A stretch of 59,915 bases of DNA, the filler included. It is 6 parts of 6 records of this genome, joined end to end, with 100 filler letters (N's around TTAATTAATTAA, not from the genome) between each part and the next. Parts side by side here need not be neighbours in the genome. Positions count along the whole stretch, not along the records: positions 6,129 to 18,807 come from DRR723986_25034; 5 more parts are not named here. The stretch is one strand, 5' to 3'. The notes beneath the pieces were generated by a model. That model was not told where the DNA came from. It ran no database searches and saw only the letters and a program-made list of their open reading frames with translations. Shown piece after piece: positions 6,029 to 18,908 of this stretch; the stretch's first letter is position 1; each line of letters starts with the position of its first letter. The translations under genes and the position numbers were made by a program.

Positions 6029-6128
6029 NNNNNNNNNNNNNNNNNNNNNNNNNNNNNNNNNNNNNNNNNNNNTTAATTAATTAANNNNNNNNNNNNNNNN
6101 NNNNNNNNNNNNNNNNNNNNNNNNNNNN
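6029..6128. other. Artificial contig spacer
   Basis: 100 nt of N with a central TTAATTAATTAA. Confidence 0.99.
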
Positions 6129-6769
6129 GCCACAGGCTAACAGGTGGTGTGGAAAACTATTTATTCAGAAACCTGCCCGTTCAATGGATAAAACTGACCG
6201 CTCGAAGACTCGCTGAGAGACTTTAGACTTAATGGCTTGGATTTTCGAGTCGGCATACACTCTGCCACCCGGACAAATGTGATGCGAACTGCTATGAAGT
6301 AATAAAAGTAAGCACAAACTGGTCTCGAAACCTGGCGGATGGCAAAACAGACTGTGGCGCAAAAAAATGGTTCGAGCAGTTTCGACAGTATTCCAACCGT
6401 TGAAATCTTATGTCCAGCCGTACCCTTAAATATGATACTGCCGAAACCGCTCGAACCAAAGCTCATTCCCTATCATTAATCGCCGTAAATCTACAATCTC
6501 CGCCCTGGTGAGTCCAGTCATTTGCGAGTGGATCGACACATAGCCGGAGTGAATTTGATGCGGCGCGGATTGTAGCTCATGGCAGCCCAGAGCCTCAGAT
6601 TTTGGCTCCGCCTCTGCCAGGAAAAATCGCCGTGCAGTGGAAGCCCATGCAAGGGATTTGCCACATGTTATTGTGATATTCGGCAGAGTTTCACAACTTC
6701 CACTACGTGAAGCTCTGTTCCGTACCGTATGTCCGATAATATGTCCGATAAAATGCTTGGGGAATCCTG

Positions 6770-7888
6770 TTGATGCCACAGCCACGAAATTTTCGTTTAG
6801 AGCGGCTGACTGCTACTCCGCTCACTGCCTGCATTGTATTCACAATTGCTCTGCTATTCGCGGCCTGCACGCCAAAAACGGATAACGAAGAGCCCGCAGC
6901 CGAGGCGCCTAAAGTCGCTCAAACGCTGGAGGCGCGGCAGGCAGGTGACTTCAGCGAGGTGTGTATCTGGAATCATCCACAGACATCAAATCAAAGTCTT
7001 GTATTCGCTGCAGATGGTGAATCTGGCGACCTGTTTGCCTTTGGTCTCGATGGCGCGGCACTGCAATCGATAGCTTCGGAAAAAGCCGCAGGAATTGACG
7101 TGCGTTACGATGTAGCATATGGTGATGATGTAGTACATGGTACGGACACCAGTGACATTCTGGTTTTTCTCAATACTGCGTCTCCAGCTGAAATTCGCAT
7201 CTATGCTATCGATTCGGAACACCGCAGTCTGGATCGCGTCGATTCTGGAATCCGCTGCAGCGACGGAGCCGACGGCGGTGCACTGACTACAAGTCGGGCA
7301 TCTGGTGGGATGTTCTACTTTGCCAGCAACTCCAAAACCGGATTGATTGAACAATACACACTCAGCAGCGACAGTCTAAACGGTGGCATTAAAGGCGAAG
7401 CAGTTCGCGAGTGGACACTCGGATCGGCTGGCGACATACTTGCCGACGATCAGGCGGGCATCATTTTTGTTGCCGAGCCCGACAAGGGTGTTTGGCGACT
7501 GCACGGAGCACCACAGGGCGAAACACCCGGCGAACTGCGCATCAAAGTGGGCGAAAACGGCCTGAAAGCCGTCGGCCAGCTGGCTATGTACAAACGCCGC
7601 GAGGGCGACGGCTACATCATGGTCGCCGACGGCAAGGACAACAAAGTCCATCTGTACAAACGCCGCGCCAACAATGCTTATGTTGGCAGCTTTGAACTAC
7701 AAGGCAGCCCCGACGACGGCGCGATGGCAATTGTCAGCGCTGAGATGGACAGCCGCTTTCTCTACGGCATGTTCGTTAGTGAATCCGAAGACTCCGATTC
7801 CGGCGCGCGCCTGAACCTGACACCCTGGGAAACGATCGCAGATATGCACGGCTTCAACGTTGACAACTCCTGGGATCCACGCAAATAA
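6770..7888 (+). CDS. Beta-propeller phytase-like lipoprotein (degenerate active-site motifs)
   Basis: Lipobox LFAAC. Phytase-like segments IWNHP, GIDVRY, ILADD..GIIFVAE.DKGVWR, GDGYIMV, F.YGMFV, TPWETIA. Confidence 0.7.
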   Translation: MMPQPRNFRLERLTATPLTACIVFTIALLFAACTPKTDNEEPAAEAPKVAQTLEARQAGDFSEVCIWNHPQTSNQSLVFAADGESGDLFAFGLDGAALQSIASEKAAGIDVRYDVAYGDDVVHGTDTSDILVFLNTASPAEIRIYAIDSEHRSLDRVDSGIRCSDGADGGALTTSRASGGMFYFASNSKTGLIEQYTLSSDSLNGGIKGEAVREWTLGSAGDILADDQAGIIFVAEPDKGVWRLHGAPQGETPGELRIKVGENGLKAVGQLAMYKRREGDGYIMVADGKDNKVHLYKRRANNAYVGSFELQGSPDDGAMAIVSAEMDSRFLYGMFVSESEDSDSGARLNLTPWETIADMHGFNVDNSWDPRK

Positions 7889-7948
7889 ATTTGCCGCAGG
7901 CGAAGCTTAGGAAGATCACATTTACCGTTGTACGGTTTTGGAAAGCAC

Positions 7949-8842
7949 ATGGAATATGTTGCCATAATAGCTGCCATCTTCGGATTGGCAGTCCTCTATC
8001 GTGTTATCGTCAAACCGGCCCCCAGAGCGGATGAGCAGCTGGATATGCCCGCCGAGTGGCGACCGCTGCTCAAATCCAACGTGGCATACTATAACACACT
8101 CGATTCTGAAGCGCAGATGCGTTTTGAAAACCTGATCATGCACTTTCTGGCGCAAGTTGACATCACAGGCGTGGGCACACAAGTGACTGACCTGGATCGA
8201 ATTCTGGTGGCGTCCGGTGCTGTGATACCGATCTTTGGGCTCGATGACACCTGGCTGTATCCGGGCCTGCACGAAGTCCTGCTCTACCCGCGCCAGTTTG
8301 ATGAAAAATTTGCTTTCAGCGAAGGTGATAAGGATGACGACCGCAACATCCTGGGCATGGTAGGGCATGGTCAGATGAGTAGCGTTATGATCCTTTCACA
8401 ACCTTCCCTGCGCCGGGGCTTTGCCAACGCGCGCGACCGTCGCAACGTAGCCGTGCATGAATTCGCACATCTGATTGACAAGGCCGACGGCACGATTGAC
8501 GGCATTCCTGACATCCTGTTTGAACATCGTTTTACAGCACCCTGGCTGCAACGCATTCGCACCGAAGTCGCAAAAATCAGCGCCGGCGATTCCGACATCA
8601 ATCCCTATGGAGCCTCCAGACGCGAAGAATTTTTTCCTGTAGTCGCCGAGTATTTCTTTGAAAACCCCAAACTCATGCGTCGCAAACATCCAGAGCTGTA
8701 TGCGATGCTGCAGAAAGCATTCAGACAGTCGCTGGCAGACAAAGTCATGCGCCGCGTAAAACGCGCCAGTGCCGGGCGCAATGCCCCCTGCCCTTGTGGC
8801 AGCGGCCGCAAATACAAACACTGTTGCCTCAAGAACTCCTGA
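7949..8842 (+). CDS. M90 (MtfA-like) zinc peptidase with C-terminal SEC-C motif
   Basis: N-terminal TM, EVLLYP, NVAVHEFAHLID, NPYG..EEFFPVVAEYFFENP, tail GRNAPCPCGSGRKYKHCC. Confidence 0.88.
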   Translation: MEYVAIIAAIFGLAVLYRVIVKPAPRADEQLDMPAEWRPLLKSNVAYYNTLDSEAQMRFENLIMHFLAQVDITGVGTQVTDLDRILVASGAVIPIFGLDDTWLYPGLHEVLLYPRQFDEKFAFSEGDKDDDRNILGMVGHGQMSSVMILSQPSLRRGFANARDRRNVAVHEFAHLIDKADGTIDGIPDILFEHRFTAPWLQRIRTEVAKISAGDSDINPYGASRREEFFPVVAEYFFENPKLMRRKHPELYAMLQKAFRQSLADKVMRRVKRASAGRNAPCPCGSGRKYKHCCLKNS

Positions 8843-9098
8843 GCATGTCAACCACCTTGCCTGCTTGCCTGAACTCGGTAATAAATCATTTTCACATTCT
8901 TGCAACTTCCCTGGCTTAGGTCCGTATGCAGCCGGTCGTGCCAAGATGAAAGTCCAACTCGAAATCCAAATCTAGCGTTGGAATTGAAGTTGTGAGTCCG
9001 TTAACGTGACGGTGCGGAGTTGGTGGCATACGTCCCAGGCTGGGCATTCCGGCATTGTGGTAAAGCTTAAAAGTCATTCAAGGTCAGGGTTAAGCGGA

Positions 9099-9983
9099 AT
9101 GAGTTTCCACGCATCGATAGACCGAACGGTCGCAGATTTTGCAGCTATGATGCTCCCCGGCCTTTTCCGGCGCGGAATTGATGCACATACACTCCAGGAA
9201 CATTTGGAGGCGACAAATTTGACGCTGCCGGACCTGGAATCCCGCGCGATACATCGCCTGGATGTCAACGGCTTGGATCGCAGGCTGCAGTGCGCCTTCA
9301 GAATTATGCAGTGGCATGGCGAAACAGCACCGACGCTCATTTATCACCACGGGCTGCTTGAGTTTCCTTTCGATGGACTAATCAAACAAATCATTCCGGT
9401 TAATCGCGATAAATTTCCGCTTAATCTGATTGCCGTGCAGGCGGCCTACCACCGGTCCTTCTCGCACTTCAGCGGAGACTGCGACAGTCTGGAAAAATGG
9501 CTGGCCATGACGGCGGCCTCAATCAAATTGCTTGATGCTCTTACTTCGCGCATAAAAATTATGTCCACAGCGCGTGTGGCGCTGACCGGGCCGACTTTTG
9601 GTGGACATATCGTCAACTTCCACCACCGTCTTTTTGGCTCAGCAGATGTCTATATTCCTCTGTTTGCCAGTGGACGCATGGGCGATGAGATGCTGGTGGC
9701 CCCCCTGCGACGTCTGATCGGACGCAATGCACTCAAAAGTCAGGAAGAACTGCGCCGACGCCTCAACGCAGACATTCCCTTTCCCGCCCAGCCGACCAAC
9801 AACATTTTCCCATTGCTTCCGCGCCACGAAAACGAAGCGCTACTTGAATTGCAGCAGAAATACTACACTGACTGCGATGTTGAGATTATCGACCGTTCGT
9901 TTGTCTCCGGCACCTTGTCATTTAAACTGTTGCGTGCACACATTCTCGATAGTCTTTACAAGTCTTACCGGGTCAATGACTGA
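9099..9983 (+). CDS. Alpha/beta-hydrolase-fold protein, apparently non-catalytic
   Basis: PTLIYHHG and VALTGPTFGG at the GxSxG position; stop overlaps the Nudix start. Start placed at MSFHA. Confidence 0.55.
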   Translation: MSFHASIDRTVADFAAMMLPGLFRRGIDAHTLQEHLEATNLTLPDLESRAIHRLDVNGLDRRLQCAFRIMQWHGETAPTLIYHHGLLEFPFDGLIKQIIPVNRDKFPLNLIAVQAAYHRSFSHFSGDCDSLEKWLAMTAASIKLLDALTSRIKIMSTARVALTGPTFGGHIVNFHHRLFGSADVYIPLFASGRMGDEMLVAPLRRLIGRNALKSQEELRRRLNADIPFPAQPTNNIFPLLPRHENEALLELQQKYYTDCDVEIIDRSFVSGTLSFKLLRAHILDSLYKSYRVND

Positions 9984-10447
9984 TGGCTGATGCAGCCGAC
10001 AAATTATCTCCGCTTGTTCCACGTGCGGCCGTCGCCGCCTACATTTGCAATAACAATGGCGAGCGCGTGTTGCTTATCAAGCGCGGACATGCTCCGGCAG
10101 CCGGTGAATGGGCCCTGCCCGGCGGTAAGGTGCGCGCCGGCGAAACGCTCGAGGCAGCACTAAAGCGCGAAATACACGAAGAAACTGGATTGTGCGTTAC
10201 CGTCCAGCCGACGCCACTCTACGTATTTGATTCAATCCATCGCGATTCAGACGGCACATTACAATTCCATTATGTAATCATTGATTTTGCCGCCAAAGTT
10301 GTGGCAGGACAGATTCATGCCGGAGATGATGCCAAAGAGATTGCCTGGATCAGCAAAGATGAATTAGATAATTTGAACGTAAACACCAGTACGCTGCACT
10401 TCCTGCGTGAAATTGTTAACTTTGGAGAACACGATGGTAACTGTTGA
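9983..10447 (+). CDS. Nudix hydrolase
   Basis: Nudix box GGKVRAGETLEAALKREIHEETGL; HYVIIDF..AGDDA. Confidence 0.92.
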   Translation: MADAADKLSPLVPRAAVAAYICNNNGERVLLIKRGHAPAAGEWALPGGKVRAGETLEAALKREIHEETGLCVTVQPTPLYVFDSIHRDSDGTLQFHYVIIDFAAKVVAGQIHAGDDAKEIAWISKDELDNLNVNTSTLHFLREIVNFGEHDGNC

Positions 10448-10892
10448 CGCGACGATCTGCACGCGCACTATTGCGCTGATTGAACAAGCGGGCCGGGTTT
10501 TGGTGGCCACCGTTCCGGGACTGGACTACTACTTTATTCCAGGTGGCAGAGTTGAACATGGTGAAGATGCACGTAGCGCTCTGGAGCGCGAAATGCAGGA
10601 AGAACTGGGAGCCAATCTCCAGGATGCCCAATTACGCGCTGTAATTGACAACTTTTTTATTGAAAATGGCCGCCATGTGCAAGAGCTTGGCGTCTACTTT
10701 GCTGTTAAGCTGGACATTGACATCAATAGTGATGGAATTCTGGGCCGCGAAGAGACTCAGGACATGCCCTGCCACTGGTTGGACTTAAACGATTTAGAGA
10801 CCACAAACCTAAAACCGGCAATCCTAAAAACCATTTTGCCCGAAATCCTCAACCGCAAATCCCCAGGTTATTATGTTAACCGCGAGTGGTGA
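10434..10892 (+). CDS. Nudix hydrolase
   Basis: Nudix box GGRVEHGEDARSALEREMQEELGA; GGAG RBS before ATG 10434. Confidence 0.9.
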   Translation: MVTVDATICTRTIALIEQAGRVLVATVPGLDYYFIPGGRVEHGEDARSALEREMQEELGANLQDAQLRAVIDNFFIENGRHVQELGVYFAVKLDIDINSDGILGREETQDMPCHWLDLNDLETTNLKPAILKTILPEILNRKSPGYYVNREW

Positions 10893-10971
10893 GACATAAG
10901 ACCAGAGCGCCTACAACAGTAAGTCACTAAAATGCTTGCCACTGCCGACTCGGTGCAAAACAAGAAATTCA

Positions 10972-11022
10972 AAAAAGCCTGAGACGGAAGTGCAGCGCAG
11001 CGAAACAAACGGCTCAAAGCGC
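10972..11022. repeat. Dispersed REP-like repeat, copy 1
   Basis: AAAAAGCCTGAGACGGAAGTG-N17-CGGCTCAAAGCGC; both blocks recur exactly at 48176-48229. Confidence 0.8.
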
Positions 11023-11056
11023 TCAGCAAACACACTATTGTTTATTATTGGAATAT

Positions 11057-11090
11057 AAAAAAGCCGCGAATGTTAAACACTCGCGGCTTT
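11057..11090. terminator. Probable bidirectional intrinsic terminator
   Basis: AAAAAAGCCGCGA...TCGCGGCTTT between convergent genes. Confidence 0.8.
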
Positions 11091-11132
11091 CTTGTGTGCA
11101 TTTTGAGCCATAGAATGACTCAAAGTGTTAAA

Positions 11133-13085
11133 TTAATAGTCGCCACCAATCCTGCGTTTCTGAAGTTTGCTGTCATTGCTGAAACGCGGAAGACGCTCCG
11201 GACGCGAGGTTACTCCACTTGTATCAGTTAACGCACGCATAAATGTGATGACGTCGGCCTGCTCGGAATCTGTTAAGTCCAGCGGCGACGGCGGCAAGGT
11301 CTGGTGTTCAACATCAAGCCCCAGGCCAATCCCACCGCCGCGATTGTAAAAGTCCAGGACCTCTTCCAGCGTAGCGTAGGCTCCGTTGTGCATATATGGT
11401 CCGGTTAAGTCGATATTGCGGACGGTAACGGTTTTAAACGAATGTTTGTAGAATGGCGCGCGTTCCAGCAGGCGCCCACCCCAGCGGCCAATATCCGCAT
11501 CGAGGATTGGGTTAAGTGTGTCCGACGTGAGCGGAACACCTAAAACTTCAGACTCCGTTTCCACAAAGTAGGGTGGAACAAGTCCGTTAAACGTTGGTGC
11601 AAAATGGCAGGTACCACATGCGGCTTTGCCCATAAAAACGTTAAATCCGCGTTTAACTGCCGGATCGATGTTTTCGGTTTCGCCACGTACAAATTTGTCG
11701 AAAGGTGAGTTCAGCGCAACCAGGCTACGCACATAGGCAGCCAGCGCGCTCGTGATGCTGTGCGACACAATCGGACGGTCCTGCATGTGCGGAAATGCGC
11801 GCATAAACAGCTCGCGATACTCGTCACTCTGCTGCAGTTTTTCGGCAATATCAATAAAACTTGTGTGGAATTCGCGTTCGTCTGTTACTACGTGATCAAT
11901 CTGATCTTCGAGTTTGCCGGCGCGCAGATCGTAAAAAAAACGATCTGAAAATACGGCGTTAACCAGTGTGGGCGCATTGCGATCCAGCGTACCCTCAAAG
12001 TCAAGTGCCGTACTCTTGGCCATCCCATCGGTAAACGCTTTATCCGGATGATGACAGGAAGCACATGCGCGCTGATTGTTAACCGAAAGTACCGGGTCAA
12101 AAAACAGAAGTTTGCCAAGCTCAACCAGTTCGTCACCGGCTTCCTTGGCCGAAGTTTTTGTGAAGTAGTGCGCGTTAAGCAGCTCGGTGCTAAAGATATT
12201 GTCCGCGAAGTAATTGAGCGGCATCGACTGTGCCGTAAAGTCATCGAGAGTTTCAATGCCAAGACTTTGATGCGCCTTTAAGGTCAATGCAAACAGCGGG
12301 TTAACAACTTCAGTCAAAAAACCGAGACGGTCAAAAGAGTTAAAGTCGGAATTGGCATTCAACAGCGTCTGCGCCGTGGAGAATGTGGCGCTGAGCTCGG
12401 CGGCCAGTTCAACTCCCGACGAACCGGACTGATGCATGCGCGCGTAATAGGCACGCAGGGTTTGTTCCATCGAGGCAAAACTCTGGCGCGCCTCGGGAAT
12501 CGCATTCAAAGATCCGGGCGTATCAAACCCGGTCAAACCAAGCGTGAAGGTGCGAATGATATTTAAACGCACAGCTTCAAAGACTTCTCTATCGCGAAAC
12601 TGTTGGTGCAACCTGGCGCTGAAGAACAGCTTAGAATTTTTGTTAAGCAATTTAATCATTCTACCCAACTCGGCGCGGTCAATGACGTCGTCCTCAGGAG
12701 CAAACGCCAGCTCATCAATCACCTGCAAACCCTCGGGCTCGAGGATTGAAATTTCGCCGGTATTGCGTTCCAGCGCCGGCAGCGGCGCACCGTTAATAAA
12801 GTCATCAACAAACTCCGGATCGCTGAATGCGGCCAGGAATTCAATTTTTTTGTACGCCAGACGCATCTGTGTAACAACATCGCGAATATCAGCGTCACTC
12901 CCCGACTTCAGCGTCTGCCGGCTCTCCAAAATGCGCTGCTGAAACTGCGCCAAATTGGAGGTGTACGTGGACAGCACAGATTCGAGCGGGCTTTTTTGAG
13001 GGATGGGAGCACTGAAGGCGCTAACTAGGAGAGCTGAGCCAACAATGACAATAAAAGCGATGAGGGAAGTTAAAATCGTTCGCAT
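11133..13085 (-). CDS. Diheme cytochrome c peroxidase/MauG superfamily protein with a long N-terminal helical extension
   Basis: LGKLLFFDPVLS, CASCH, RNAPTLVN, CGTCH, FKT.TVRNI..TGPYMHNG. Start placed at MRTILTS (signal peptide). Confidence 0.9.
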   Translation of the reverse strand: MRTILTSLIAFIVIVGSALLVSAFSAPIPQKSPLESVLSTYTSNLAQFQQRILESRQTLKSGSDADIRDVVTQMRLAYKKIEFLAAFSDPEFVDDFINGAPLPALERNTGEISILEPEGLQVIDELAFAPEDDVIDRAELGRMIKLLNKNSKLFFSARLHQQFRDREVFEAVRLNIIRTFTLGLTGFDTPGSLNAIPEARQSFASMEQTLRAYYARMHQSGSSGVELAAELSATFSTAQTLLNANSDFNSFDRLGFLTEVVNPLFALTLKAHQSLGIETLDDFTAQSMPLNYFADNIFSTELLNAHYFTKTSAKEAGDELVELGKLLFFDPVLSVNNQRACASCHHPDKAFTDGMAKSTALDFEGTLDRNAPTLVNAVFSDRFFYDLRAGKLEDQIDHVVTDEREFHTSFIDIAEKLQQSDEYRELFMRAFPHMQDRPIVSHSITSALAAYVRSLVALNSPFDKFVRGETENIDPAVKRGFNVFMGKAACGTCHFAPTFNGLVPPYFVETESEVLGVPLTSDTLNPILDADIGRWGGRLLERAPFYKHSFKTVTVRNIDLTGPYMHNGAYATLEEVLDFYNRGGGIGLGLDVEHQTLPPSPLDLTDSEQADVITFMRALTDTSGVTSRPERLPRFSNDSKLQKRRIGGDY

Positions 13086-13249
13086 ATAAATACCTGGAGC
13101 TCTAAAATATTCCTGGAGAACAGCACCAAAATTTGAAAAAACCGACGGACACGATGGCCCGCCGGTTTTGGATATCAAGACTATTCTGGTTCTGACTGTT
13201 TAAGTTCCGTGAACTGGAGATTCACGTTCGTCAGAACAAATTGGTCAGC

Positions 13250-15100
13250 TTACTGGATCGATACTTTAGCTGTTTCGCCTTCTGCATTTTGCAGGTAGTA
13301 GGCGCCGGCAGGCAGATCCAGCACGTTGATGCGGTCTGTGTTTGACTTTGAACGAACAAGTTTGCCGTTCACGTCATACAGCGCAACATCCATTACTTTG
13401 TCGAACTTCAGCGTACGTGTTACAGGATTTGGGAAGACTTTGAAGGAGATACCATCAGGCGTATCACCACCGCGATCATCCTCTGCAACGTTAGTTACAA
13501 CCTGATCCCAACCGGTAATCTCGATTGTGCAGGAGTTGTTGTACGGGAAATTGTTAACAATGTCATTCGGGTGCTGGGAGTTAACCAGGATCGACTTTCC
13601 ATCAGGTGTGCCAACGGCACCAGTGATTTCAGCACCGATTGGTGTTACTGCAACACGGACGAGGTTATCGAGTGAAGCTTCTTCGTTCATGTCCAACATG
13701 TAGAGTTCACATGCGCGATTGGAAATACCCACCGGCATACGACCAACGCTTGTACCGTTAAGGTCTTCGCAGATTAACATGTAGGCGTTGCCGTTTACGT
13801 ACAGGAAGTTGAGGCCGTCAGGATTTGAAAGGTGCGTTTCTGGATACTCAGCACCTGGGCCTTCTGGATTCCAGAATGGACCGGCTTCCAGGAAAACTGT
13901 GACTTCATCTGTCTGCGGGTTGTACTGCAGAATGCGTCCGTAGTAATCCCAGTAAGATGGCAGGTTTTCGTCAGCATCATATACGTCGGCGCCTTGCTCT
14001 TGAGCGCGCTGAACGTGGTGGTAGGCTACTTCGGAACCACTGTCATCATGCTCGTCGGCCCAGCGACCGGCAGGATTGTCACGACCAGTTTCGGTCATAT
14101 AAATCATGCCGTTGTTTTGGTTGTATGCAATCCACTCAAGGCGGTTAAACATCGTGGCATTCAGCGCTTCTGCTTCGGCCGTAAAGTTTAACATTGTTTC
14201 CATTGAATTGTTACCATCAACTTCAACCCATTCACCTGTAAATGAATTTTCGTTCTGCTTGTAAATGTAGGTTGTTCCACTTGTGAAGTCACCGGCTACG
14301 TCGGCAACAAAACGTGTGAAGTAACCTGGCGTAGCGTCGGCACCGAGGTAAACAGTACGGTTGTCCGAAGCAATCGCGCCACCTTCAAATGGCTGGCGGC
14401 CCCAGTTGTACTGCTTGCGGATGGCTACAGCTTCGCGCGGATCAATTTCAACCATGTAGTTGAAGTTTTGGTAGCGCTCAATTGTTGTACCGTCAAAGTC
14501 ACCGTCCAGATCGGAGGAAACGGTGTATGGACTCAGGTCCGTAACGCCGCCTTCGATTGACTCATTGGAGCTACGGAACCACTCTTCAGCAGTCCAGATA
14601 CGACCGTCAACGGAGGACTGGATACCACCGCAGTTCATACCCGTTTCACCAACAGTATTGGCAAAGTCAACGTTAAAGAACTCACCAGTACGGCCATCGG
14701 AAAGTGTTTGATTAACAACTTCCAGAAAACCATCTGCACCACGACGAACCTTAAAAGCGGTCATCCCGCCACCGTCACCAATTTTTTCATTTGCCTGAAT
14801 CATCTCGTGGTTAACAGAAACCCATCCGAGGTCGTCCGACTCAGTGTCTTCCGTAAAACCAATGAAGTCATGCCATTGTTTGGCGGGCTCGGTACCATTG
14901 GGTGTACCGTTAGCATCACGTGTTTGAACTTCGTCAACACCACCGATAAACAGGACGTTTGTACGCAGCGGCGAAGCCGGCATTACAAATTCGGGCGAAA
15001 CGAATGGCGTTTCAAGCGTCATTTCCGGCGAAAACTGCGCCATGCTTGCTGAAGAGGCAGTCAGGGCTGCAACTGCCAGACACGTAGTCAACTTTTTCAT
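13250..15100 (-). CDS. phoX: PhoX-family (DUF839) alkaline phosphatase with T9SS type A C-terminal sorting domain
   Basis: VNHE, NCGG, TAEE, GR..FEG, NPDGL, CED, AEITG, NSQHP. C-terminus VFPNPV..LYDVNGKLV..LPAGAYYL. Sec signal MKKLTT. Confidence 0.85.
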   Translation of the reverse strand: MKKLTTCLAVAALTASSASMAQFSPEMTLETPFVSPEFVMPASPLRTNVLFIGGVDEVQTRDANGTPNGTEPAKQWHDFIGFTEDTESDDLGWVSVNHEMIQANEKIGDGGGMTAFKVRRGADGFLEVVNQTLSDGRTGEFFNVDFANTVGETGMNCGGIQSSVDGRIWTAEEWFRSSNESIEGGVTDLSPYTVSSDLDGDFDGTTIERYQNFNYMVEIDPREAVAIRKQYNWGRQPFEGGAIASDNRTVYLGADATPGYFTRFVADVAGDFTSGTTYIYKQNENSFTGEWVEVDGNNSMETMLNFTAEAEALNATMFNRLEWIAYNQNNGMIYMTETGRDNPAGRWADEHDDSGSEVAYHHVQRAQEQGADVYDADENLPSYWDYYGRILQYNPQTDEVTVFLEAGPFWNPEGPGAEYPETHLSNPDGLNFLYVNGNAYMLICEDLNGTSVGRMPVGISNRACELYMLDMNEEASLDNLVRVAVTPIGAEITGAVGTPDGKSILVNSQHPNDIVNNFPYNNSCTIEITGWDQVVTNVAEDDRGGDTPDGISFKVFPNPVTRTLKFDKVMDVALYDVNGKLVRSKSNTDRINVLDLPAGAYYLQNAEGETAKVSIQ

Positions 15101-15299
15101 TTGAAGCAAACCGTAATTAATGATACAAAGAATGAAGTAATCGAGTGACGTTCAAAATCGAAAAGTTTTACACTGGGAGTATGGACGTCGAATGTACGTC
15201 GGGGGCTTGTGTGAATCTGTAGCACAAGTATTAAACAACTGTCTAATTACATGCGCCACAGATTCAAAACATATTGAGCTTTAACAACTCTCGAAGACG

Positions 15300-15391
15300 C
15301 AAAAATAGTCCGGCGGTATTACGGAACTGTTAAGAGGACGACAAGATTCTGTTGCATTTGACAGATTAAATATTTGTTTAATTCATGTTTA
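15300..15391 (-). promoter_or_regulatory. Candidate phoX promoter with Pho-box-like direct repeats
   Basis: Minus strand: TAAACA-N5-TAAACA (15391-15375), TTAACA-N5-GTAATA (15333-15317), then TATTTTTG matching TAnnTTTG (15307-15300). Confidence 0.5.
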
Positions 15392-15989
15392 GCAGGTATT
15401 CACATCATGTTCATCAATTATTAAGCTCAGGTTGCAATCAGGTTGTCGCGACAACATTTTTATTTAACATTTCAACAACATATTTCTTTGGAGCGCATTG
15501 GTGAATTTGAGTGCCAGGGCTTGGATACTGGCTTCTTGATGGATCAAAGTCTTGAGGACTTGTGGCTTTGAAAGGTGTAAGCGGCTTCAAGTTTTCGCAT
15601 TTCCAGCCGGCGGGCTCCTTGCCAGTCGCCATATTGATCGCTATGCTCTGCATGCGCTTTTTTTGATATGTATGCTTGCCTCGCAGTTTGAAGTGACCGC
15701 TCCCCACGTGATGTCATGAATTGAGGCTGAAATGCTCTCGGACAGATTTTCAAATGATTGACTTTCAAATGATTGAACGTTGGTTGGGCCTGCGAGAAGG
15801 ACGAGCGTAGCTCCATTGCTACGTGAATGCATAAGGGCAACACCAGGCCAGTTTTTGCAAAGAAACAGCTACCAAATTATTAATTCCGCGTAATTTTAGT
15901 TATCTACACATAGATCCGTGAGCGATTCACATGTATTGCACGATCCCTATAATCAACACACGCTACGAATTGTGGGCAGCAAAACTCTA

Positions 15990-16868
15990 ATGATTCAATC
16001 CAAAAAGTGTTATTCAGCGAATTTTTCCTTCCGTACACTTTCGCAACTACTCGTATGCCTGATCATCTGGCTGTCAATCACTAGCTGTAGTGACGAATCC
16101 ACAGCTCCAGAAACAGACACGAACAATCAATATTGGCAGAGGCTTTCGGCCGGCAGGTATGCACTCCAGTTTTTTCTGGACGAATTTGATGACAGCAATA
16201 CCGTAGGGGTCATCGAGCTGAACTCGAGCTTATCGGTGCAGCTCCGCCAAAGTCCTCCAGGCATCGGACCACTGGTTGAGTTTAGAACTGAAGAAACTAA
16301 AGGAACTGCCAGTACATTTGATTTGGCCCAAAAGATTCGCGCCTCGCTTGGAAACATCACAGTCAACGGCACGACATTATCTGAATATGAGCCCGGCGGC
16401 TACCAACATCTTCGCTTATTTAATGATCCGGCATTGGAATTGAACTTTGGGTCCGGTCAAAACGATATCCTGATTGAAGGAAGTGAAATTTTTCCGCGGT
16501 ACGAAGGCAGCGTGACTTTTAAAGGCGCTCCAATGCTCTCAAATATCACACTAGGCCAAAAGGTTTCTCGCTCTGCGAACCTTACGATTACCTGGAATGG
16601 CGCAGCAACAGACCAAGCCGAAATTGTCCTGGCAACCTATGATCCCTCCACCGATCCGCTTGACGGTGAGATTCGTTTTTTCTCAAAGCTAGTTGAAAAC
16701 AGTGGCGAAACAACGATCGCGGCCGAGGAAATTCAGAATTTGTCCAAAGGATTAACAGACCTTGTCATACGACAATTTGAAGTGCTACCCGTTTCAATGC
16801 CAAACGGCCAAGTAATGTACGTTGCCGGAGTCACTTCTCATGCACTTTCGGTAGAGTTGGTTGAGTAA
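15990..16868 (+). CDS. Uncharacterised lipoprotein (paralog 1)
   Basis: Hydrophobic signal ending ITSC; end-to-end similarity to 17175-18044. Confidence 0.75.
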   Translation: MIQSKKCYSANFSFRTLSQLLVCLIIWLSITSCSDESTAPETDTNNQYWQRLSAGRYALQFFLDEFDDSNTVGVIELNSSLSVQLRQSPPGIGPLVEFRTEETKGTASTFDLAQKIRASLGNITVNGTTLSEYEPGGYQHLRLFNDPALELNFGSGQNDILIEGSEIFPRYEGSVTFKGAPMLSNITLGQKVSRSANLTITWNGAATDQAEIVLATYDPSTDPLDGEIRFFSKLVENSGETTIAAEEIQNLSKGLTDLVIRQFEVLPVSMPNGQVMYVAGVTSHALSVELVE

Positions 16869-17174
16869 ACATAAACAAACTCTTGACCGTGGTTTCGATT
16901 CCAGGAGTTGGTGTTCTAACTAATGGCTCATCGAATACCAGGGTTACTATCTTATGTGCCCCGATGGACGAATATTTTCTGAGAGCCCAATCACCATTTC
17001 TTTCAGGGAACAACACTTCCAGCCGGTTTTGCCCTGCCATCTTGATGAACGCTATGAGACCCCGTCAATTATTCACAAAAATACCACGATCCACAATGTT
17101 GTGATGAAGTTAAACGATGATTGCCCACTATGCGATTAACATGCCTCCAGTTTTAACAGAACTCTAACATACAA

Positions 17175-18044
17175 ATGATAGATACTATGAACGCAACTAC
17201 GAACTATTCACCTCTGAGACTTACATTCATAAGTCTTTCATTTTGTTTGATTGTTTCAGCTTGTGATGACGATGTGCTGCCCACTTCTGAAAATGCTCCG
17301 CCAACGGTTAATCTTGTGTATTCTGCCGGCAGATACCAATTGGAGGATTTGATCGAGCAATTTAATGCGAGTAATGTTGTCGGTGTTATGCAACTATACA
17401 AGCGCAATTTTGAAATCTTGCGACAATCGATTCCCGAAGTCAGTCCGTGGGAACCTCGCACCTTTGAAAGCTCCAGCGGCTATGCCACGCTCTATAACAT
17501 TTCTGACGAGACGCTTACCTCCGCCGGAATAGTCACTGTTAATGATGTTTTGTTTAAAGAGTATCAAACGGGAACATATCAAGACTGGAATTTGGCAGGT
17601 GAGACGAAACTTTCACTCAATTTTGGTGCAGGGACGAATGTTATTTTTCTTCAGGGAAGTGATGTAATACCGCGTCATACCAGCACGGTCTCGTTTGCTG
17701 CTGCGCCATCTGTTACTAATGTGATTCGCGGTCAGCAGGTATCACGCTCGGCAGACTTTACTGTTGAATGGGCCGGCTCAGGAGTTGGACACACCGAAGT
17801 TGGAATCGATGCAGGCAATGCCATCAGAAACCCACAGGCCGGCCAGATTAGTGGAATTGTACGATTCGTCGATAACTCAGGTTCTACAACTCTCTCGGGC
17901 AGCAGCCTGCAAGACTTGCCCAATGGAATTGTAGAAGTGTATGTTACTCAATTTGACCCCGTAGCGATTCACTTACCAAACGGCCAGCAAGTCTACGTGG
18001 TAGGCGTTTCCAGTCACGAGATTTCGATTGAACTAATTGACTGA
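17175..18044 (+). CDS. Uncharacterised lipoprotein (paralog 2)
   Basis: Signal ending VSAC; shares SAGRY, LNFG.G.N, GQ.VSRSA, NSG.TT and PNGQ..YV.GV.SH with paralog 1. Confidence 0.78.
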   Translation: MIDTMNATTNYSPLRLTFISLSFCLIVSACDDDVLPTSENAPPTVNLVYSAGRYQLEDLIEQFNASNVVGVMQLYKRNFEILRQSIPEVSPWEPRTFESSSGYATLYNISDETLTSAGIVTVNDVLFKEYQTGTYQDWNLAGETKLSLNFGAGTNVIFLQGSDVIPRHTSTVSFAAAPSVTNVIRGQQVSRSADFTVEWAGSGVGHTEVGIDAGNAIRNPQAGQISGIVRFVDNSGSTTLSGSSLQDLPNGIVEVYVTQFDPVAIHLPNGQQVYVVGVSSHEISIELID

Positions 18045-18070
18045 ACTTCACTTTGGATTGCGAGTGGCAA

Positions 18071-18781
18071 ATGTATCCAACATTTGAAGTCTTTGGCACC
18101 GAAGTTCAACTGTTTTTACTATGTATTTGTTTTGGTTTTACCGTAAGCAGTTTTGTTGTTCTGAAGTTGGGCAAAATCACAGGTCTTCAGAACTGGTGGA
18201 TATTTTTAGTAGGATTTTGGTTTTTCGGCCGCCTGGGCCAAGAGTTGTTTTATAACTTTGCGCAACAACTGCCCATCAGTTTTGGCGTTTCAGGAGGATC
18301 GACGATTCTCGGCTCAATCGCCGGCAGCTTTATCTTGGTCCCACTGCTGGCTCAACGGCGGAACATGGACTGGAAGTCCATGGCAGACTTCTTTGTGCTT
18401 CCCCTATTGATACTACAGGTTTCCGGCAAACTCGGGTGTTTTTGGGAGGGATGCTGTTATGGTTCAGCGACTTCCATGCCCTGGGGCGTTCATTCCAGTA
18501 TTAGTCCTTTAGTTTACATTCACCCGACTCAGCTATATGAATTTGTAGCATTACTTTTTTTGCTGCTTTTTTTGTTAACATGTGCCAAATACGCGCATAT
18601 CAAAGTTGGCGCATTAGCGGGTATGTATCTGTGCCTATATGGAATCGAACGTTTTTTGGTTGAGTTCATCCGGGGCGACGCTGTCAGATCAGGCATCCTC
18701 GGCTTAACAAGTGGTCAAGTATTGTCGGTAATATTTCTGGTGATCGGCCTGACAATGCTGGTTCGCTGCCGGCAGAGCTAG
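18071..18781 (+). CDS. Prolipoprotein diacylglyceryl transferase (Lgt) family protein, divergent
   Basis: MYP start, multiple TM segments, KLGCFWEGCCYG, HPTQLYE, YGIERFLVEFIRGD, LTSGQ.LS. Confidence 0.85.
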   Translation: MYPTFEVFGTEVQLFLLCICFGFTVSSFVVLKLGKITGLQNWWIFLVGFWFFGRLGQELFYNFAQQLPISFGVSGGSTILGSIAGSFILVPLLAQRRNMDWKSMADFFVLPLLILQVSGKLGCFWEGCCYGSATSMPWGVHSSISPLVYIHPTQLYEFVALLFLLLFLLTCAKYAHIKVGALAGMYLCLYGIERFLVEFIRGDAVRSGILGLTSGQVLSVIFLVIGLTMLVRCRQS

Positions 18782-18807
18782 TGGGTTAGGCGTAAAATTC
18801 GGTAACT

Positions 18808-18907
18808 NNNNNNNNNNNNNNNNNNNNNNNNNNNNNNNNNNNNNNNNNNNNTTAATTAATTAANNNNNNNNNNNNNNNNNNNNNNNNNNNNNNNNNNNNN
18901 NNNNNNN
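18808..18907. other. Artificial contig spacer
   Basis: N run with TTAATTAATTAA. Confidence 0.99.
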
Positions 18908-18908
18908 G

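Follow-up and report, generated by a model that had tools for sequence, protein, structure and literature searches.

An EfeO/imelysin-fold diheme protein encoded beside non-Tat PhoX phosphatases: a candidate extracytoplasmic iron maturase

We analyzed a 59,915-nucleotide (nt) stretch of DNA (the window) that joins unrelated contigs, in which the true gene neighborhood of the locus considered here is limited to positions 6130-18807. The locus is a gene pair composed of phoX, which codes for a secreted PhoX-type phosphatase, and a gene for a fusion of an imelysin-fold domain to a diheme peroxidase-like domain (the fusion, or helper). As had been stated in an earlier note on this DNA, the two genes are co-oriented (both on the minus strand) and separated by exactly 164 nt (13086-13249). 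The following features make up the locus.

13250..15100, minus strand: phoX of the general secretory (Sec)/type IX secretion system (T9SS) type, 616 amino acids (Pfam/NCBIfam, 4AMF profile alignment, Foldseek)
13268..13438, minus strand: T9SS type A sorting domain, PhoX residues 555-611 (PF18962 and TIGR04183, above cut-off)
11133..13085, minus strand: imelysin-diheme fusion, 650 amino acids, Sec signal without lipobox (AlphaFold2 model)
12252..12995, minus strand: EfeO/EfeM/imelysin-fold domain, residues 31-278 (VIA-align, hmmsearch, PF09375)
11211..12152, minus strand: CCP_MauG diheme domain, approximately residues 312-625 (PF03150, alignments)
11346..11348, minus strand: Tyr580 codon, predicted heme-2 axial ligand, equivalent to MauG Tyr294 and probably to BthA Tyr463 (alignments)
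13138..13169, minus strand: terminator-like hairpin with U run between phoX and the diheme gene (-19.2 kcal/mol; z -3.6)
11057..11093, no strand assigned: strong hairpin 3' of the diheme gene (z -8.2)
15375..15390, minus strand: possible, weak Pho-box-like repeat with an 11-bp period, roughly 290 nt upstream of phoX

The phoX product matches PF05787 at 90.7 bits (cut-off 24), and its beta-propeller model is most similar to Pseudomonas fluorescens PhoX (top Foldseek matches 3ZWU, E 9e-22, and 4A9V, E 2e-21). All ten active-site positions that we take to be the Fe, Ca, and phosphate ligands of the P. fluorescens enzyme are conserved in the profile alignment to 4AMF (E99, C157, E173, E239, D255, R320, E322, D428, D446, and E491), and the product is predicted from its sequence to be an Fe/Ca-dependent phosphatase. 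A T9SS type A C-terminal domain is present, in line with the T9SS secretion stated in the earlier note (PF18962, 34.2 bits, cut-off 27; TIGR04183, 31 bits, cut-off 23). Signals were typed against the consensus for twin-arginine translocation (Tat), the export route of canonical PhoX; that of the window protein is a Sec signal with no twin arginine. The ten conserved active-site residues and the Tat signals of PhoX have been confirmed in another organism, according to the available text of PMC5768637.

Because the 80 loci nearest the window fusion are a biased set (window-type PhoX lies directly upstream in 35 of them), we turned to 301 Bacteroidota genomes, drawn evenly from the phylum to which a Crocinitomix locus belongs. 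The N-terminal domain of the fusion occurs in 43 of these genomes, in 50 genes, all of them fused to the diheme part (locus L160, outside the random sample, is excluded from the counts); a search for stand-alone domains returned 37 short matches, mostly fragment-like and without gene context. A phosphatase gene adjoins the fusion or lies one gene away in 38 of the 50 cases, comprising 8 window-type T9SS PhoX, 19 lipoprotein PhoX-like proteins, 5 T9SS PhoX of the PKD type, 1 PhoD-PhoX fusion, 4 purple acid phosphatases (PAP), and 1 TIGR03397 acid phosphatase; families with a ferric site (PhoX, PAP, PhoD) thus account for 37/38. The remaining 12 fusions have a PhoX about 5 kb off (1), YaeI-like metallophosphoesterases (2), a SixA-like protein (1), no phosphatase (6), or a contig edge (2) nearby. 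No PhoA or PF01663 protein was found among the 62 other immediate neighbors scanned (one PF01663 gene lies two genes from the fusion in L114), and the neighbors scanned included no EfeU/FTR1 and no mau or mbn genes. In a second set, 81 genomes from the genus of a Flavobacterium locus, all 27 lipoprotein PhoX adjoin the fusion. The linkage to phoX, on which the reading of the earlier note depended, is conserved far beyond chance. A census of PF16656 (136/301 genomes above cut-off) was set aside, since this domain is FN3-like and unspecific.

In a tree of the helpers (80 rows, quick method, with the truncated L159 left out), partner types are clustered and switch repeatedly: PAP partners recur in at least two helper clades and need five changes, at least two of which are forced by well-supported branches. 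In L078 and L142, the fusion adjoins TIGR03397 Burkholderia-type acid phosphatases, and the partners thus include the unrelated PAP and TIGR03397 folds.

The diheme part belongs to the PF03150 superfamily, with 151 bits against a cut-off of 25.6, two CxxCH motifs, a distal Glu, and the fold of bacterial cytochrome c peroxidases (VIA Z 29.2 to BccP); the AlphaFold2 model of the 650-residue fusion has a predicted local distance difference test score (pLDDT) of 92.4 and a predicted template modeling score (pTM) of 0.91. Every motif quoted for this protein in the earlier note is present, as is the N-terminal extension (about 310 residues). The heme motifs are CASCH (341-345) and CGTCH (490-494), the distal residue is E405, the Ca site is formed by N370, T561, and P563, and Y385 lies between the hemes; the only cysteines are the four that bind heme. 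C341, C344, H345, C490, C493, H494, and E405 are invariant in all 50 homologues of the random sample. The Met that ligates the high-potential heme of canonical peroxidases is absent, as had been claimed, and Tyr580 aligns with Met258 of Nitrosomonas europaea cytochrome c peroxidase. The tyrosine of the PYMH motif, put forward in the earlier note as the ligand of heme 2, is the wrong residue: this Tyr564 is also present in canonical peroxidases, and we rejected it in favor of Tyr580 of an FYN motif, which aligns ungapped to MauG Tyr294. Y580 is found in 50/50 of the unbiased homologues and in 121/121 close homologues, and we predict that heme 2 has Tyr/His ligation.

This Tyr/His pair places the protein beside MauG (TIGR03791) and MbnH (TIGR04039), with which it shares the CCP_MauG fold, the heme-2 Tyr, and the Ca-site residues, and MbnH (6E1C) is its top sequence match. 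It nonetheless scores below both family cut-offs (170 vs. 444 bits for TIGR03791; 185.8 vs. 362.85 for TIGR04039), and differs in its additional imelysin domain, in having no mau or mbn genes nearby, and in carrying Tyr385 at the position of the inter-heme Trp, a variable position that is Trp in only 8/50. A second likeness is to Burkholderia BthA, a Tyr/His diheme enzyme without inter-heme Trp that is always found beside a secreted phosphatase; the statement in the earlier note that BthA neighbors a phosphatase gene agrees with PMC6405878, in whose available text the neighbor of bthA is a putative purple acid phosphatase (PhosA) and BthA is suggested to oxidize this partner. The two are distant in sequence (6NX0, E 7e-11). 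Y580 falls on 6NX0 chain position 398, which from the match ranges and the His192 offset would be Tyr463. The Tyr ligand and the phosphatase neighbor of class A BthA are thus both found here; its Lys444 in place of Ca and its Cys415-Cys430 disulfide are not, the window protein having kept the Ca ligands.

A MauG/MbnH-type covalent modification of the phosphatase, leaving a cross-link or an oxidized residue, was proposed both in the earlier note and by Lidbury 2022 (PMC8812569). The heme-2 Tyr/His pair common to MauG, MbnH, and BthA, the match to MbnH, the one-to-one linkage of a sub-stoichiometric helper, and the inactivity of PhoX expressed alone (PMC8812569) would all suit it. However, no position of the PhoX alignment (from which L161, with an internal stop, is excluded) holds a Trp, Tyr, Cys, His, or Met that all three linked clades share and that Tat PhoX lacks; the only residues to pass are C157, which is the universal iron ligand, and Y334, itself Tyr in 9/15 Tat PhoX. 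The lack of a common modifiable residue, together with partners of unrelated folds, argues against this mode of action, as does the rarity of the inter-heme Trp that MauG needs, and we regard covalent modification as improbable.

The pairing itself has been described. In the available text of PMC8812569, every Flavobacterium phoX shares its operon with a MauG-like gene, for which a maturation role was proposed, and Flavobacterium PhoX expressed alone in Pseudomonas putida was inactive and may need a cofactor; the pairing and the maturation idea were thus already published, which the earlier note had missed. In Flavobacterium johnsoniae, Fjoh_2478 (phoX) and Fjoh_2477 (MauG-like) form, like the window pair, a PhoX-like and diheme operon, induced by inorganic phosphate (Pi) starvation (fold-change column 12.50 and 9.58 in Table 1 of PMC8115612), and the MauG-like protein appears in the cell proteome and was undetected in the exoproteome. 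Since 27/27 lipoprotein PhoX of the genus adjoin the fusion, Fjoh_2477 is very probably a member of this family. Unlike the F. johnsoniae pair, the window PhoX is T9SS cargo of another clade and its helper has no lipobox.

In 25/28 operons, phoX is followed by a terminator-like hairpin and its U run, compared with 10/28 after the helper, 0/28 inside phoX, and 3/112 in shuffles. Its position between the two genes fits a catalyst made in sub-stoichiometric amounts. The hairpin at 11057..11093 is probably a bidirectional terminator shared with convergent NUDIX genes. A repeat with an 11-bp period, whose likeness to a Pho box we assume, lies upstream of 10/28 operons (shuffle mean 0.9, maximum 4 in 200). 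A scan for sigma-70 promoters and terminators gave nothing above chance, its loop limits having made it miss both hairpins.

The N-terminal extension has a fold that the earlier note overlooked. We searched the AlphaFold2 model against 48,161 chains and built a profile from 78 N-terminal domains. Residues 31-278 align to EfeO with a VIA-align Z of 24.3 (rmsd 2.7, 232 residues aligned), followed by EfeM (23.9), the imelysin-like protein IPPA (22.1), ICMP (21.0), and IrpA (20.4), with the best unrelated helical match at 11.6. The profile finds EfeO (hmmsearch E 3e-11), and 31 of these 78 domains match PF09375 with an E no higher than 1. Judged from the model, the extension is a member of the EfeO/imelysin superfamily, with its fold of two four-helix bundles. 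Its pocket is altered relative to the EfeM metal ligands (numbering of PMC9174327, from its available text): E90 has become K79, D107 N98, E179 R178, and H126 Q121, so that 3/4 acidic ligands are replaced by Lys, Asn, and Arg, and E82, D124, and D188, equivalent to EfeM E93, E129, and E189, are still acidic. Neither the GxHxxE motif nor the full set of acidic site-IV ligands of EfeO/EfeM is retained. The new residues are themselves highly conserved (K79, N98, and R178 each in 48/50, Q121 in 46/50), indicating a pocket that is under selection yet holds no EfeO-type iron site.

By analogy, an EfeO fold joined to a peroxidase mirrors the EfeO/EfeB and imelysin/DUF1111 operons (PMC3143127, and PMC9174327 for EfeO/EfeM-EfeB, in the text available), in which an imelysin fold is likewise coupled to a heme peroxidase; here, in contrast, the peroxidase is of the CCP_MauG rather than the DyP or DUF1111 type and is linked to phosphatases. 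Xu 2011 (PMC3143127) notes that imelysin-peroxidase fusions exist as a small group, which may include the present family. A divergent branch (L157, L158) has an altered pocket and no PhoX, and a small cytochrome c gene follows the fusion.

The conserved, charge-reversed pocket could instead belong to an independent phosphorus-scavenging oxidase, in which a P-oxyanion (phosphite, phosphonate, or Fe-bound organophosphate) would be bound by the cationic pocket and oxidized by the diheme part, the linkage to phoX reflecting a shared Pho operon. Co-induction of the gene by Pi starvation (PMC8115612), the switching of partners between folds, and the six helpers without a phosphatase are all consistent with such an enzyme. 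We nevertheless consider it rather unlikely, in that shared regulation alone fails to predict the selectivity for non-Tat PhoX, the lack of PhoA and PF01663 neighbors, and the matched lipidation described below, and no transporter gene is conserved beside the helper.

The linkage follows the export route of the phosphatase. Among the 38 PhoX of the 301 genomes that have no Tat motif, 34 have a fusion no farther away than about 6 kb, 1 is split from it at contig ends, and 3 are from genomes without a fusion. Tat-like signals (11 RR, 3 RK, and 2 RL) mark every one of the 16 canonical PhoX; these are never beside a fusion (0/16), and 14 of the 16 are in genomes that have none. A Cys at the lipobox position is present in 19/19 helpers beside lipoprotein PhoX and 0/5 beside PKD-type T9SS PhoX; two of the nine helpers beside window-type PhoX have one, neither with a clear lipobox. 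As predicted from these signals, the anchoring of the helper follows that of its partner. PhoX and PhoD are described as Tat substrates in the available text of PMC4223295, where insertion of iron in the cytoplasm is speculated.

The helper could also act as a protective or reactivating peroxidase, clearing H2O2 near the Cys-ligated iron or re-oxidizing a reduced site while being dispensable for first assembly. Tyr/His ligation is no obstacle, since BthA with this ligation still turns over H2O2 (PMC6405878, available text), and for the same reason the statement in the earlier note that the enzyme is not an H2O2 scavenger cannot be made. The retained distal E405 and Ca site and the unusual Cys-Fe(III) bond of PhoX (PMC4223295) agree with protection, with which the co-localization of helper and PhoX is equally compatible. 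What makes it unlikely, if the least so of the alternatives, is that Tat-type PhoX, with the same Cys and also extracytoplasmic, never has the helper; protection also leaves the conserved imelysin pocket unaccounted for, and no conserved cytochrome c donor gene adjoins the fusion, a small cytochrome c being found in the two divergent loci only.

We favor, with a probability of about 0.5, the reading that the helper is a low-abundance extracytoplasmic maturase that oxidizes Fe(II) to build the di-ferric oxo center of PhoX exported in an unfolded state. Folds, ligand residues, linkage, export signals, and the hairpin are computed; every catalytic step we infer. In this scheme, phoX and the helper would form a two-gene, phosphate-starvation operon whose main product, an Fe(III)2-Ca3 alkaline phosphatase, would pass unfolded through Sec before secretion by the T9SS and, unlike Tat-exported PhoX, could not receive its iron in the cytoplasm. 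The helper gene, read through the terminator at a lower level, would supply a periplasmic maturase. H2O2 would raise its His/Tyr diheme to a high-valent state (probably bis-Fe(IV)), which, at apo-PhoX or within it, would oxidize Fe(II) to Fe(III) and so produce the di-ferric oxo center, with the imelysin domain docking the acidic apo-enzyme or binding phosphate or an Fe-oxyanion, which seems more likely than the carriage of free iron.

Judged from sequence, the partners are alike in having a ferric active site and in leaving through Sec, and not in any residue. The suggestion of the earlier note that the enzyme may oxidize iron or load it into PhoX thus fits the Tat/Sec split; its alternative, that PhoX is modified, fares poorly for want of a common target residue and of a common partner fold. 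More tentatively, and with odds that we would put somewhat against it, the fusion may be a single-chain maturase in which bis-Fe(IV) oxidizes the iron of the partner in place of its amino acids and the imelysin domain, used for docking, has turned from cation to anion binding, a device that would have let several PhoX clades exchange Tat for Sec/T9SS or lipoprotein export and would also account for the role of BthA beside PhosA.

Several observations weigh against the maturase reading. Six Sec-type PhoX or PhoX-like genes (in G261, G299, G067, G346, G379, and G380) come from genomes in which the fusion was not found, and a search of five of these six genomes for PF09375 gave no match; the three from the Flavobacterium-genus set are weaker PhoX-like domains (Cys ligand unconfirmed) in large Sec-type proteins. 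PhoD is present in 100/301 genomes, with the twin arginine absent in 23 of the top 30 matches, and only one PhoD-like gene adjoins a fusion; PhoD being mostly unlinked, Sec export of an iron phosphatase alone needs no helper, and we rejected the broader proposition that every Sec-exported iron phosphatase requires one. Behind the contrast in export, moreover, stand three Sec and two Tat clades (in a quick tree with long branches), and hence few independent events. The degraded EfeO ligands make plain iron carriage doubtful, and six of the 50 helper genes have no phosphatase neighbor. Finally, PMC8812569 also offers mis-folding or mis-localization as reasons for the inactivity in P. putida, and the PhoX-like Psip1 is active in vitro after treatment with ethylenediaminetetraacetic acid once Fe and Ca are added (PMC11098088), both as given in the available text.

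The available text of PMC8812569 and PMC8115612 proposes a protein-derived cofactor and speaks neither of an imelysin domain nor of a Tat/Sec split, a terminator within the operon, or a switching of partners; nothing on a diheme protein was found in that of PMC13700237, and a literature search that covered few subscription journals found no paper combining an imelysin or diheme protein with PhoX. New here are the imelysin domain with its altered pocket, the Tat/Sec split, the matched anchoring, the internal terminator, and the partner switching. The fusion family is common (43/301 genomes) and annotated merely as cytochrome c peroxidase. The Tat/Sec contrast leads to a direct test in F. johnsoniae of how iron enters PhoX and of the role of phosphatase-linked, bis-Fe(IV)-type enzymes like BthA. 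If the reading is right, a dedicated iron maturase would explain the inactivity of PhoX expressed alone and would link phosphatase activity in Bacteroidota of sea and soil to the supply of iron and peroxide.

The lipoprotein PhoX-like clade (L033:6170-7660 and relatives), the most frequent partner of the fusion, retains the PhoX ligands and is present in 18/301 genomes; it is mostly missed by Pfam (PF05787 match in 2/16) and aligns to window-type PhoX with an hhalign probability of 98. PKD-type T9SS PhoX (L116, L133, L135, L136, L143, and L041) have Gly at the position of the phosphate-binding Arg in 6/6 and usually adjoin a leucine-rich repeat gene. Directly behind the helper of L151 (G207:C8, from 2483) is a 2720-codon open frame that combines a PhoD-like domain, LamG repeats, and a PhoX domain.

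Directly downstream of the helper, five loci of one clade (L117, L120, L123, L124, and L129) have a Rieske [2Fe-2S] gene, which is found in both orientations and may encode a redox partner; in two loci (L138:3560-5968 and L141:3445-5844), an 800-residue protein of no Pfam family is encoded directly downstream. An IS3-type integrase lies between phoX and the helper in one locus (L047:6292-7571).

On the contig of the window operon, a beta-propeller phytase-like gene (6770-7888, plus strand; PF02333, 119 bits), 3 kb from the operon, is a second phosphorus-scavenging gene, upstream of which is a 24-bp inverted repeat (92%) at 6368-6458. The segment 15918-18781 (plus strand) carries two similar lipoproteins of no Pfam family, which match Atlas clusters (score 0.95) made up of unnamed Bacteroidota proteins, and then a short Lgt-like gene that matches PF01790 and is under every NCBIfam cut-off; the three are possibly a dedicated lipidation unit. 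The N spacers at the contig joins (about 6030-6129 and 18808-18908) contain TTAATTAATTAA, and the flanking pieces of the window (clpP/clpX and glnD/murJ) look alphaproteobacterial.

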